DNA of 62,087 nt, counting the filler, from Collodictyon triciliatum (lineage: Eukaryota): assembly GCA_043381765.1 (NCBI GenBank). It is 7 parts of 7 records of this genome, joined end to end, with 100 filler letters (N's around TTAATTAATTAA, not from the genome) between each part and the next. Parts side by side here need not be neighbours in the genome. Positions count along the whole stretch, not along the records: positions 10,188 to 17,850 come from JBHJMP010002799.1; 6 more parts are not named here. The stretch is one strand, 5' to 3'. A model generated the notes under the pieces. The model searched no databases. It saw nothing but the letters and a program-made list of their open reading frames with translations, and was not told the DNA's origin. Within the stretch, counting starts at the first letter, position 1. Every line of letters starts with the position of its first letter. A program made the position numbers and the translations under genes. This document shows positions 10,188-15,691 of this stretch, one piece after another.

Positions 10188-10831
10188 AAACTCTCTTACC
10201 CCCCCCCAACCCCCTAAAAAAAAAAAAAAAAAAAAAAACTGCAAGACGCAGGATGTGAAATCCCACTATGCTTCGCCGCCAAGTCTTCACCGTTTATTAT
10301 TTCTTTCCTCCCGAACTTTCAGCCATTCTCCCTCTCGAGAGCCCTCCCTTCATCATTTTTGAGGCTGTGAATACCCTCCCCATCACCCCGCGATATCAAA
10401 TTAAAAAAAAAAAACACTTGCTTTGACACGCTTTGCTGCGTATACTCACCCGCTGTACCCTTCACCAAGAAAACCCAAAGCCGCATTTGGAATCACGTCT
10501 GGAAGATATAGTAAATGTCAATATGCCGGAAATATCTACTAGGTGTGGAATTTAATTAAATATGCACATTTTGTACTCAAATATCCGTACATATTCAACA
10601 AGTATATATCGAATACGGTATAAATATGCATTCAGTAAAAAACTTATCAACCAACATCTGCATTTATCACCCAGCTGTCTCATCGTCGGATCATGTGCCT
10701 TACGTAGTTGTGCCTCTTTCAAAAGAGAAAGGCAACGCCTGCATAAGCGAAAAGGGAGGCAGGACATATGGGATTAGTAAACGCGCGGCGCCTGAAGTTT
10801 AATCCGCCCATGACTCGTATTCTCTTCTCTT

Positions 10832-10862
10832 TTTTTTTTTCTTCCTTTATTCGATTCTAAGT
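10832..10862 (-). mobile_element. Ultra-short A-tailed insertion, family A
   Basis: Minus strand ACTTAGAATCGAATAAAGGAAGAAAAAAAAA lies between exact 19-bp repeats ACTCGTATTCTCTTCTCTT (10813-10831, 10863-10881). Confidence 0.75.
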
Positions 10863-10960
10863 ACTCGTATTCTCTTCTCTTATTATGACGCTCGCTTACC
10901 ATCATCCTCTTGCAACACAAGGCTTCTCTCTCGGCAAAGAAGAAGAAAAGCAGCAGAGAA

Positions 10961-13553
10961 ATGGCCACGCAAGCCGACGTTGAGCGCGCCGCAACCAATC
11001 TGCGCCGCTCTCGTGCCTTTGAGAACAGCGTTTGGGTATCACTTGCTCACTGTTTTTGACACTCTATCCTTGTTTTCATTGCTTTTCCTATTACTACTCA
11101 CTAATATCTTCTACTTATTCATTGTTTTTAGTATTCATTTTTCATTTTTCATTTTTCATTTTCCATTTTCCATTTTTCATTTTTCATTTTTCATTTTTCA
11201 TTTTTCATTTTTCATTTTTCATTTTTCATTTTTTTCATTTCTTATTTCTCCCTTCTTCTCATGGATGTAATGGCTTTTCTTTCTTTCTAAACGCATGTAT
11301 TTGAACTCCTTTCCTCTTTTCCAGGTCCACATCAACAGCCTCGTGGCACAATACGGCGCAGTGAACCTCGGCCAAGTATTTCTCGCCAAACTCCAACCGC
11401 ATTCCATTCTCTTCAGCCTATTTTCTTTTCCCTCCACCTCATTCGACTCAACTCTTTCCTTTCAGCGCGCTCAACCCCACTCTTCGCCCCTATATACACA
11501 TTTGCACTCAGCATATATGACTCTTTCGCTTTTGCTAACCTTTCTTGCAGGGATTTCCCGACTTCACCGGCTCGCAACTCGCCAAGGAATCGGCGTCTCA
11601 GGCCATTCTGGACGGTGAGAGGAACCAGTATGCGCCTCCGATTGGCGTCCCTGATTTGCGCCAGGCTTTGGCCCGTTTCTACTCCCCTCGACTCGGGCGC
11701 ACGCTCAATGCCGAGTCGGACATCACTGTCACGGTCGGCGCAACAGAGGCCCTCTATGTCCTGATGTCCAGTCTGCTTGCTGAGGGCGACGAGGTTGTTT
11801 TCCTGCAGCCTTTCTTTGACATCTACTACCCGCCTGTTCAGATTGCCGGGGCCAAGGTAACGCATGGCCCAGCTTGGTATAATCGACTATTGCTGTGTTG
11901 TGAATATGCGATATGCTCATGTGCGGTTTTGCTTAATGCCACCAAAGGCTGGCTGAGAGTTCCTTTTATATATATATACATTTTCTATTATTTTGCATAA
12001 TATACTTTCTTTTTGCGCAAGAATAAAAAAACGAAAAATCATGCTGCTTGATGTTTCGTGTAGCTCAAGGTTGTCACTTTGGAGCCACCGTCCTTCAAGA
12101 TTAATCATGAGGAACTGAAAGCTGCATTCAACGAAAAGACTAAATTGGTACTTTTGATTTTTGGTTGAGCTGGTAGAGTCATTCCATTCTTCAAAACAAT
12201 TGAAGTATCGGAAGTGCAATTCACTATACATAGAAATTGCACATAAGTAAAGGCGTAATCGAAGTTTTATATTCTTGAATACATAGATTCTCATCAACAC
12301 GCCTCACAATCCAACTGGACATGTTCTTGGACTTGACGAACTTACGTGGATTAGGGATTTATGTGTTCAATATAACGCTTTATGTATTTCGGACGAGGTT
12401 TATGAGAATCTGGTTTATGATAACAAGAAACACACGCATATCTCCACTTTACCCGATATGTGGGAAAGAACGCTGACGTAAGAAAGCTGAAATAACAAAC
12501 CCCTCATAGTACGCAAATTCTCACTAACGTATATATAAGACCGTTGAAAAAAATAATACAATTCGTTGAGACATGATCATTGCATTCGTTTTTTCACCCT
12601 TTCATTTATATATCTGTCACCTAGCGTGAGCTCTGCAGGAAAGTCATTCTCTCTGACTGGATGGAAGGTTCTCTTGAATTTTCTTCTGACTCCATTTTCA
12701 CATTGTCAATGCACTAGTATTTACGTACAAGTGTACATGTGAATCTGCTTATCGGTGGGATACTGACAACCACTTTCAATGCACATTTGCGTAGGTTGGA
12801 TGGGTTATCGCCCCACCTTCTCTCCAGATTTACATCCGACCATTGAAGCAGTTTGTGACGTTTTCGGGCGCCACTCCCCTTCAAGTTGGTATCGCTAAAG
12901 CGCTGGATTTGTCTCCGCCAGAGTACTTCGAGGAGTTGAGACAGGACTATCAAAAGAAGCGCGATTTCCTAATGGGTGTTCTGGAGGAAGTGGGCTTACC
13001 ACCTTATTGTCCAGACGGAGGTTACTTTGTTATGGCTGATATTCGTGGCACCGGCTTCACAGATGACTTTGCCTTCTGTGAACATCTCATTAAGGTTACA
13101 CTTGATTCATCAAATATTATACATCCCTCTTTTTTTTTTTAAGCTTCTTCCTTGGATGCGTTCTACCTCTGTCAATAAGACTAATTCAATGTTCATTGAA
13201 TCGAATAAGGGAAAAAAATTAATTCAATCTTCATTCACACTCCTTTTGTTTATATATGCATAAATTTATTATTTTTTTTACAGCTTTTCTGAATCTCAAG
13301 GAGACAACAGAGTATATGCATATGCATATAAGTTAATTTATTAGAACTCTGATTTAGTCATTTCTTTCATGAATACGTAATTGTGCAGGAAGTTGGTGTT
13401 GCTGCCATCCCACCCTCCCCTTTTTACTTGGATGAGGATAAGTCGAAGGCCTCGACCATGGTGCGCTTTGCTATCTGCAAGAAATGGGAGACCCTCCACG
13501 CGGCTGCTGAGCGACTCAGAAAGAAGCCTTTCAAGAAATCTGAGACAAATTAA
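10961..13553 (+). CDS. PLP-dependent class I aminotransferase, kynurenine aminotransferase / glutamine transaminase K (YbdL-like), 8 exons
   Basis: Motifs AVNLGQGFPD, NQYAPPIG, VTVGATEAL, NTPHNPTG, SDEVYE, PLP-lysine motif SAGKSFSLTGWKVGW, GVAAIPPSPFY and VRFAICKK. All introns are GT-AG. Confidence 0.93.
11135..11240. repeat. (TTTTCA/TTTTTCA)n intronic repeat
   Basis: Direct tandem run. Confidence 0.9.
13198..13219 (+). mobile_element. Ultra-short A-tailed insertion, family A
   Basis: GAATCGAATAAGGGAAAAAAAT lies between TAATTCAATGTTCATT (13182-13197) and TAATTCAATCTTCATT (13220-13235), which differ by one mismatch. Confidence 0.7.
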
Positions 13554-13753
13554 GTCACGTCCAGCAAAATATGAAATAAAATGAAATAAAATAATGATTC
13601 ATAGGCGTAGAACTGTAAAAATAACGGCCCCTCACAATAAAAGAAGTTACTTGTCTTGCCTTTTCACTCATTCATTCATTCATTCTCCTTCCAATTTCAT
13701 CTTCGCTTTGTTTTCTCTTCAAAGAATTTTGTGGAGTATATTTATGGTACCAT

Positions 13754-15691
13754 TTAGAAAAACTTGAGTTCTTTTTCATTCCTTGTCACAAACACGGGTA
13801 TGGAGCTGTTCTCCATGACTTCTTTTGTTACAGACCGACGGAACATCCCACGGACGCCGTGCTTGTTTCGAAAGGTCATCACTATCAATCCACAATTATA
13901 TCTCTCTGCATAGGTCACAATCTCCTGTGATATCGAGTGCGACTTGGGCACAACCACTTCCGTCTCTGCCGAAATCTACTTTCCATTTAGGTTTCATATC
14001 AGCATGAGGCTGCACACACCCACACACAAGCATGAATACCAAAAACAAGACCATCAGGGCATCGACAAAATAGCGCAATCGCAAAGGCAGACCCCGTGTT
14101 GTATGGCTGTGTCCTTTCCCATCTGCAGTGTGCGGCGAGCGCGGGCGATTTGCAACTCGGGTTCGCTCTGTGTTTGAGCGGTGCGTTGGTAATAATAATA
14201 ATAGTAATAGTAATAAATAATAATAATAATAAATAATAATAATAAATAATAAATAATAATAATAATAAATAATAAATAATAATAATAATAATAAATAATA
14301 ATAATAATAATAATAATAATAATAATAATAATAATAAATAATAATAATAATAATAATAATAATAATAATAATAATAATAATAATAATAATAATAATAATA
14401 ATAATAATAATAATAATAATAATAATAATAATAATAATAATAATAATAATAATAATAATAATAATAATAATAATAATAATAAATAACAGGAATCGATAAA
14501 TAAATTCAGGCGGGGGTTATGTTGGTGGGTGACATATCAATCGCCAAGTCAAATCATGCAACGCTAATTGATTTTTCCTTTCCTTCTGTTTTCCTTTTGT
14601 TTTGTTTTCTTCCTGGGGTGGCTTACGTGGTCTTTACTTTCGCAAAAGTAGACGAGAATCAGAACTGTCGTGTAGCATTCTACCAATCCAAAAAGAGTTT
14701 TCAGAGTCGAAATCATGGCCATGCTACCGTTGAATGGAATCAATATCTTCTTGAATAACGGGCATCTGATAGTAGCTCTAGGTGATGAATTTGTGTTGCG
14801 CATCGTGAATTGTGATGATTGCGAATCAGTTATATCGCCTGATGACATTGTCATATCATCGCTTTCCCTACTGCCATTTCCGCCATATATCTCCTCCTCC
14901 ATTGACCAATCAGAAGGTGGGATTGCATCGCTACTTATGCTGATTAGTGGGATGTTCGTCTCCTTCATGATACATTTCGTTATGTTCCGGTGCAAACAGC
15001 GACATAATCTTCGCCTGGTGGGGGTGGCCACTATAAAGAGGTCGTAGTCGCTGGACTTTTTCGATTCACCAATAAGAATAAACTCTAAACCACCTGTGTT
15101 GGTTAAAGTGAGGTAAATTCAATTCAAAGAAAATAGGGTCTCGCAGAAACATACAATTGCCAAGAATACCCTCGGTCCTGCACAAAAGTTGAAAGGAAGA
15201 ATAATAAAAAAAACAAAACAATTGCCAAGAATAAAAAAAAAATTAAATAAATTAAGGGCTTAAGATGTTAGAATATCTCTTTGAATCGAATAAAGGAACA
15301 AAATATTAGAATATCTGCACGTGCAAAAGGGAATCGATGAGATGATAGAAAAACTTTGAAATATTGATTGCAAACGATGATATTGCGTCTTACCTGATAA
15401 AATCTCTGTCGTGCATGCAATTCCATACCGATGGAGTTTTGCCCGGTTCTGTTCCAATATATTCCTTCCTCTATCCTCCATGGTATCTAAACAGCGCCGC
15501 CGCAAGAAAACAGGAGCATCACCTCCTACCGGTATGGAATGGGTGTCTACTACATATATTAATTTGACAAGTGATTTTGTCTGTTTCGCATAATGGATGG
15601 CAAGAAGAATCGATGGGCTTGATGAGGCAGCGCTGTCCACAGCCACCAAGATTGTTCGTGGTTGTTTGTTTTCTCCTGAATAACTAGGCAT
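13754..15691 (-). CDS. Universal stress protein with two tandem USP domains (about 4 exons)
   Basis: Domain 1: RTILVAVD...LIYVVD...DLFIVAT...ITKCIMKETNIPL. Domain 2: FKKILIPFNGS...QEIVTYAERYNCGLIVM...RSVTKEVMENSSIPVFV. A Ser/Asp-rich linker joins them. Confidence 0.85.
14190..14486. repeat. (AAT)n/(AAAT) microsatellite, intronic
   Basis: Direct run of about 300 nt. Confidence 0.95.
15169..15217 (+). mobile_element. Short A-tailed insertion, family B (longest copy)
   Basis: CCCTCGGTCCTGCACAAAAGTTGAAAGGAAGAATAATAAAAAAAACAAA lies between exact 16-bp repeats ACAATTGCCAAGAATA (15153-15168, 15218-15233). Confidence 0.8.
15279..15302 (+). mobile_element. Ultra-short A-tailed insertion, family A
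   Basis: CTTTGAATCGAATAAAGGAACAAA lies between ATGTTAGAATATCT (15265-15278) and ATATTAGAATATCT (15303-15316). Confidence 0.7.

Follow-up and report, generated by a model that had tools for sequence, protein, structure and literature searches.

The window analysed here, 62,087 nucleotides of Collodictyon triciliatum DNA made of seven joined pieces with filler included, contains a dispersed, A-tailed element of only some 25 nt (family A), which raises the question of whether so small a sequence is a mobile unit in its own right or the debris of a larger one. A sequence-only reading had reported five copies on three independent contigs, and all five were re-found with the same positions and strands on three of the joined pieces (10188-17850, 28145-38220, and 48497-59181). 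When described against the 3' end of the parent LINE identified below, copy A1 (10832-10862, minus strand) consists of the last 19 nt of the LINE with one substitution followed by an A-rich tail, A2 (13198-13219, plus strand) of the last 14 nt (16 including a 2-nt microhomology) followed by an A-tail, A3 (15279-15302, plus strand) of the last 18 nt and a short A-tail, and A4 (54304-54329, minus strand) of the last 18 nt (19 including a 1-nt microhomology) and A6. Copy A5 (31151-31180, plus strand) has the core with two substitutions, a G/A tail, and an uncertain 5' end. A1 precedes the start codon (ATG, 10961) of an aminotransferase gene by ~100 bp, A2 is inside a predicted intron of that gene, and A3 is in a minus-strand gene, again within a predicted intron; these intron and intergenic placements are predictions read from splice signals and ORFs. 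The families that a generic repeat finder listed were all simple or tandem repeats. It is reasonable to infer that the genome-wide copy number of family A is high.

The simplest possibility to be weighed is that chance motifs happen to lie between chance direct repeats in AT-rich DNA. The family A pattern with its A-run does match randomly in large collections, and 40 of the 41 metagenome loci that matched it look unrelated. In the window, however, the exact 14-nt core was matched five times, compared to no exact matches in 100 locally dinucleotide-shuffled windows. Additionally, four of the copies are bounded by duplications as had been claimed: 19 bp exact around A1 (10813-10831/10863-10881, or 22 bp with one mismatch once the A's of the tail are counted), 16 bp with one mismatch around A2 (13182-13197/13220-13235), 14 bp with one mismatch around A3 (15265-15278/15303-15316), and 16 bp with one mismatch around A4 (54288-54303/54330-54345). 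The repeat flanking A5 is 8 bp with one mismatch, which is at background level. The background was determined from 3000 random unmasked sites searched with equal freedom; eight of these scored as well, and the count was taken as 2/3000 because six of the eight had resampled real copies. Duplications of 14-19 bp around four of five copies are in clear excess of this control. Together with the shuffled-core counts and the parent LINE described below, to whose end one copy is identical at 25/25 positions, the duplication controls refute a chance origin, to which we assign next to no probability.

The duplicated sequences at the four sites are unrelated to each other. With no single target sequence, a target-specific LINE of the Tx1 type was rejected. 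MITEs and other DNA transposons carry terminal inverted repeats and make short duplications of fixed length; these inserts are asymmetric and A-tailed with variable duplications of 14-19 bp, and this class was likewise rejected.

The search for a parent element, which had been suggested as a check, recovered its 3' end. Among the 41 metagenome matches, a single 1157-bp contig (L008) has CTTN upstream of the core and tblastn similarity to LINE ORF2. It contains the 3' end of an L1-type LINE: the end of an ORF2 with a zf-RVT domain (Pfam E 1.5e-7), a 93-nt 3'UTR, the family A core, and A10. Copy A4 is identical to the end of L008 at 25/25 positions, which lie 93 nt past an ORF2-type stop codon. 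The other 40 loci were set aside as chance matches because they lack both the upstream CTTN and any LINE ORF. Two of these 40 have weak flanking repeats, one being located in a protein repeat and the other in A-rich DNA. Viral contigs gave no motif matches and no LINE relatives, and prokaryote genomes gave no matches. Longer relatives of L008 were absent from the results of a word-index protein search, and a full HMMER search with the L008 piece found 14; a cluster look-up yielded only uninformative names. The full-length homologues carry Exo_endo_phos and RVT_1 in four of four cases and zf-RVT in three of four, and they are just 29-38% identical to L008, over the C-terminus. No endonuclease or reverse transcriptase domain was seen on the 1157 bp of L008 or in the window, and no ORF1 of this family was recovered; the putative APE endonuclease and reverse transcriptase architecture of the parent is taken solely from these distant homologues.

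We conclude, with a probability of about 0.82, that family A represents the extreme 3' tips of an L1-type LINE with APE endonuclease, reverse transcriptase, and zf-RVT. The attribution to TPRT by an APE-type LINE thus gains support from the discovery of the parent's 3' end. By analogy with L1 biology, ORF2p would nick an AT-rich target and prime on the poly(A) of the LINE RNA; the tail and the duplication that this predicts are both observed. The second strand would be nicked 14-19 bp away, generating the duplication, with a timing modelled on human L1. Synthesis of the cDNA would end after the A-tail and 14-19 bases, where the 5' ends are found, and the short cDNA would presumably be attached at the second nick, with microhomologies of 0-2 nt. 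Where an event gets past this early stage, the product would be an ordinary truncation measuring tens to hundreds of bases. An alternative in which LINE cDNA or RNA was captured independently of the endonuclease at staggered double-strand breaks, the duplication arising with filler DNA, would account for the tiny inserts and for duplicated sites that have no strict common nick consensus. However, all five copies end at the poly(A) junction, and the four duplications of 14-19 bp are near the 14-16 bp peak described for human LINE-1 in the available text of PMC2912911, making break capture very improbable.

The nano-SINE proposal is that a master locus transcribes the 19-nt LINE tail plus poly(A) and is mobilised in trans by the LINE. 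It is common for a SINE and its partner LINE to have matching 3' ends, and a green alga and maize provide examples from the L1 clade (PMC3747384); the 5' ends of family A do cluster. One such case described there is Chlamydomonas SINEX-3_CR with L1-1_CR, which is likewise non-autonomous with a LINE-derived tail and poly(A), but whose ~80 nt common tail is within a longer SINE while family A is a headless tail. The family A copies contain no SINE head (Pol III; tRNA, 5S, 7SL, or snRNA), no promoter sequence, and no base beyond the LINE tail, and there were no Rfam matches across the whole window. The antisense strand, as we read it, resembles a tRNA T-loop, but this is the wrong strand for an internal promoter. 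The tips also vary between copies (AAAGG or AAGGG), as would be expected from several LINE subfamilies or from ageing. Since the element consists of LINE tail throughout and there are longer truncated copies, the nano-SINE is not supported, and we consider it highly unlikely, if marginally less so than break capture. On our reading, family A reflects a familiar process taken to an uncommonly short limit and not a new mini-element.

The longer copies were found in three runs; the freshwater habitat is read from run labels. Runs X1, X2, and X3 had 0.32, 0.27, and 0.16 of sampled words in common with window positions 11250-14150, and 344, 306, and 91 of their contigs, respectively, aligned on L008. 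Of the 16 small-share runs besides X1 and X2, X3 was the one aligned, on L008. The summed depth was ~70-160 in many interior bins, rose to 3440 (X1), 4915 (X2), and 466 (X3) adjoining the tail, and was zero past it; summed contig depth is not equivalent to copy number. The depth rose toward the 3' end of the LINE in three of four runs, the fourth (raw-read X19) giving no reads. The contigs have loose ends at 102-105 that are mutually discordant. Longer truncations of the L008 LINE, by tens to hundreds of bases, are seen as this depth gradient.

Where the copies stop is a separate question. Three of the four duplication-bounded copies (A1, A3, and A4) start 18-19 nt from the tail and A2 is shorter; the 5' junctions of A1 and A3 are without microhomology. 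For A5, three of the next five upstream bases also match the parent, and its start was placed between -19 and -24 because of these further matches and the lack of a bounding duplication. The claim that four of five copies start at nearly the same point consequently stands for three copies and not for the unbounded A5. No copies of 20-400 nt of the L008 subfamily were found in the window. Under a constant slow stop rate of 0.2-1% per base, five copies all ≤19 nt long were obtained in at most 1 of 100,000 simulations, whereas under a steep smooth decay (15-30% per base) 5-26% of simulations had four of five ends lying within 2 nt. With a stricter statistic, which was picked after the data were seen, steep decay yielded 0.1-0.3%. 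These results support an early abort phase of reverse transcription. A single sharp stop point, as in the claim that reverse transcription reproducibly aborts about 20 nt in, is suggested only, with five copies of which one is unbounded; the reading of a LINE that stops near 20 nt is itself supported. We lean slightly toward a preferred stop at -18/-19 over steep smooth decay.

A short RNA template would place the cause before reverse transcription. If the LINE transcript were cut ~18-19 nt before the poly(A) by a nuclease or by small-RNA slicing, ORF2p could copy the 3' fragment, which would fit the three bounded ends within 2 nt, the two junctions lacking microhomology, and the missing 20-400 nt copies in the window. 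This is improbable given that A2 is shorter, that a second family (family B) occurs in two copy lengths (23 and 47 nt), and that longer truncations are abundant. As to early abort during reverse transcription, it is possible, though we would not bet on it, that the stop would be set by ORF2p holding a small stem-loop (-39 to -18). In the available text of PMC10830416, the C-terminal segment of human ORF2p holds a stem-loop and a 15-nt single-stranded tract follows 5 bp of cDNA, giving ~20 nt from primer to stem base compared to the 17-20 nt that separate the predicted hairpin from the A-tail here; that geometry comes from work on a synthetic Alu-like RNA bearing a poly(A) tract, while the hairpin here is weak and predicted. 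Its fold energy was no better than that of shuffles (z -0.14 to -0.24), an alternative fold pairs the tail itself, and the 5' end of the short family B copy is not at the foot of a hairpin. A common variant at -21 would preserve a pair (U-A to U-G), which is too slight to carry weight. We rejected a hairpin formed inside the 18-mer (-0.3 kcal/mol). Alternatively, the stop may come when the cDNA has reached a set length of ~22-31 nt and the enzyme has to switch from initiation to elongation.

A broader proposal, which we rate somewhat below even odds, is a built-in checkpoint at which most TPRT events would end 18-19 nt into the template, either because the geometry of ORF2p imposes it, by way of a clamped stem-loop in the 3'UTR or a heteroduplex of fixed length, or because of a processed short RNA. 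If it exists, thousands of uniform 22-31 nt inserts should far outnumber ordinary truncated copies, adding 40-50 bp each to introns and intergenic DNA unseen by annotation. They would record the initiation-to-elongation step in vivo and make up an insertion class missed by repeat finders. For LINE 5' truncation, the structure papers propose a premature switch to second-strand synthesis and, in the portions consulted, give it no location; a family that piles up at one early position would allow the truncation step to be measured in genomes and tested in vitro. If the decay is no more than steep, family A amounts to the common remains of a LINE in a protist that has received little study.

Among known systems, family A resembles the 5'-truncated TPRT inserts of human LINE-1 as described in the available parts of PMC2912911 and PMC7617806, which have poly(A), variable duplications of 7-20 bp, short 5' microhomologies, 3'-anchored copies, and an ORF2 ending in zf-RVT. 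It differs from the human truncations described there in that all five copies in the window keep 14 to ~19-24 nt with ends clustered at -18/-19, and in that its host is a protist from fresh water. CR1 copies in Anolis that are severely truncated (<50 bp; PMC5389967) are also very short tips; it has been proposed that there are many of them and that a BLAST search using the entire 3'UTR overlooks them. CR1 belongs to another clade and, in the text available, declines smoothly with distance from the 3' end, with no preferred stop of the kind suggested for family A.

The window also contains a relative of the parent, whose homology and decayed tail add to the case for LINE tips. A dead, diverged ORF2 C-terminus of zf-RVT-like type (59290-59859, plus strand; tblastx E 1.6e-42) is cut by the start of its piece, has an in-frame stop at 59380, and is 38-51% identical to the L008 protein. 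Pfam did not recognise this remnant. In Atlas it fell into zf-RVT clusters (0.94-0.95) while recognition stayed under the threshold, and this lead was later confirmed by homology. Downstream of the remnant ORF is a decayed family A tail (60114-60130, plus strand) with one substitution and one deletion. A match of this quality was obtained in 0/5000 shuffles of the 225-nt region, and 60114-60130 is likely the 3' end of the window's dead LINE (59290-60130).

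Family A, a dispersed A-tailed element of ~25 nt, is a real feature of the window and is explained as a set of LINE tips. Its 14-nt core has five exact matches, in copies A1 (10832-10862, -), A2 (13198-13219, +), A3 (15279-15302, +), A4 (54304-54329, -) and A5 (31151-31180, +), as the sequence-only reading had them, and it was absent from 100 locally shuffled windows. That reading also claimed flanking duplications, and this was upheld for four of the five copies, which are bounded by direct repeats (19, 16, 14, and 16 bp) whose sequence varies by site; when the same search was run at 3000 random unmasked sites, that score was reached eight times, and six of these hits fell on the real copies. 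No flanking repeat above background was observed at A5.

The window, seven pieces linked by N spacers, has a GC content of ~37%, many introns and abundant simple repeats; among its ORFs are matches to an aminotransferase, to DENN domains, and to a glycosyltransferase. Words from positions 11250-14150 are shared with two coded organisms and otherwise mostly with freshwater metagenome runs. The host is probably a freshwater protist. An uninterrupted ORF of 2557 aa at 38697-46370 (-) is intronless although the genome is intron-rich, and encodes WD40-like repeats, a long cysteine-rich region in which a 279-bp repeat occurs nine times, and, toward the C-terminus, a multi-pass membrane region.

The parent element was found by an exact search of metagenome contigs with the core plus a run of five A's, which gave 41 loci. 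Upstream CTTN and LINE similarity were absent from 40 of these and were both present in one, the 1157-bp contig L008. The ORF2 C-terminus encoded on L008 is frameshifted and contains a zf-RVT domain (E 1.5e-7). The 3'UTR after it is 93 nt long and has the family-A sequence at its end, followed by a run of ten A's; A4 is identical to L008 at 25/25 bases. The peptide at the ORF2 end (L008 205-260, -) fits the PCNA PIP-box pattern. The window itself holds a dead, diverged remnant at 59290-60130 that is 38-51% identical to the L008 protein (tblastx E 1.6e-42), with a decayed tail at 60114-60130; when the region was shuffled 5000 times, no such match arose. The ORF at 59383-59988 resembles the end of an L1-type ORF2 and was placed beside zf-RVT clusters in the Atlas; Pfam called no domain in it. 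HMMER returned 14 matches, including four proteins of 1226-1275 aa that all carry APE endonuclease and RT domains, three of them with zf-RVT. Because these full-length homologues have both domains, the family-A LINE, in which neither was seen, presumably encodes them as well. A single-exon glycosyltransferase family 61 ORF (60214-61518, -; E 1e-18) is convergent with the 3' end of the remnant.

The sequencing runs that also hold window DNA contain a multi-copy, 3'-anchored, variably truncated LINE. This comparison rests on runs X1, X2, and X3 (X19 contributed 0), in which 344, 306, and 91 contigs fall on L008 and 128, 129, and 16 are at least 99% alike to it. Summed contig depth, which is not copy number, peaks just inside the tail (3440, 4915, and 466, respectively), is zero beyond it and is only about 70-160 in many interior bins; tips shorter than 31 nt would not be placeable on L008. 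In X1 the depth is halved by ~250 nt and is ~20-fold lower by 450 nt. Loose contig ends at the tail have a weak consensus (0.51-0.64), as expected from many insertion sites. One X1 and one X2 contig (depth ~160) track L008 140-269 with 16 differences and extend upstream into ~158 unrelated bases; they may come from a subfamily that has diverged, or from an element resembling a SINE that has the LINE tail region in common.

As one of two options, the sequence-only reading proposed a LINE that aborts ~20 nt into its template. Numbered from the last G preceding the tail, the 5' ends lie at -19 (A1), -18 (A3), -18 or -19 (A4, 1-nt microhomology), -14 to -16 (A2, 2-nt microhomology), and -19 to -24 (A5, unbounded). 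A blastn search of the window with L008 recovered all five tips as well as the old remnant; it returned no LINE copy of middle length. With simulated stop rates of 0.2-1% per base, all five copies were ≤19 nt in at most 1/100,000 runs. A slow constant stop rate, as the depth gradient implies, cannot yield the five tips, which supports an early, high-loss phase in LINE copying. The LINE parent and this phase bear out part of the proposal, and a sharp stop is possible; steep decay, at a 15-30% stop per base, also placed four of five ends within 2 nt in 5-26% of runs. A stricter end-clustering statistic, defined post hoc and taking the A5 end as -19, gave 0.1-0.3%. The remaining interest of family A lies in this possible fixed early stop.

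By the features tested, family A is a 5'-truncated L1-type insertion. Its duplication length and microhomology are comparable to those of human L1, for which a duplication length peak of 14-16 bp and frequent microhomology are reported (PMC2912911). For CR1 in lizards, it has been proposed that insertions of <50 bp are abundant (PMC5389967). No uniform class of 18-nt LINE tips is described in the full-text literature covered, at the level of titles and abstract openings and mostly outside subscription papers. The alternative of a nano-SINE is unsupported; tails common to SINE and LINE do occur in the L1 clade (PMC3747384), and despite this sharing the missing head rules against a SINE.

L1-type target-primed reverse transcription would account for the duplication length, tail, and truncation of family A. 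One candidate for what sets the position of the stop is a stem-loop, predicted to span -39 to -18, the foot of which coincides with the observed 5' ends; its fold energy is no better than that of shuffles (z about -0.2). Human ORF2p is described as holding a stem ~20 nt from the primer (PMC10830416). A second candidate is a length-dependent step in cDNA synthesis, which is indicated by the common total insert length of 22-31 nt in all five copies and 23 nt in the short copy of the apparently different family B. Alternatively, a short processed RNA may have served as the template.

Family B is a second A-tailed core, located at 9041-9097 (+) and 15151-15233 (+), with one copy of 23 nt within exact 17-bp repeats and one of 47 nt within 18-bp repeats (1 mismatch), the latter ~30 bp away from A3. 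These copies are probably the tips of another LINE. Additionally, a 198-nt insert at 30032-30261 (-) has an A-rich tail and 16-bp flanking repeats with 1 mismatch, and opens with a C-box-like motif. Its matches to C/D snoRNA models are weak and far under the gathering score (DdR8, E 1.8; SNORD31, E 3.4). Judged from its sequence, it may be a snoRNA retrocopy, a class known from mammals (PMC1687206).
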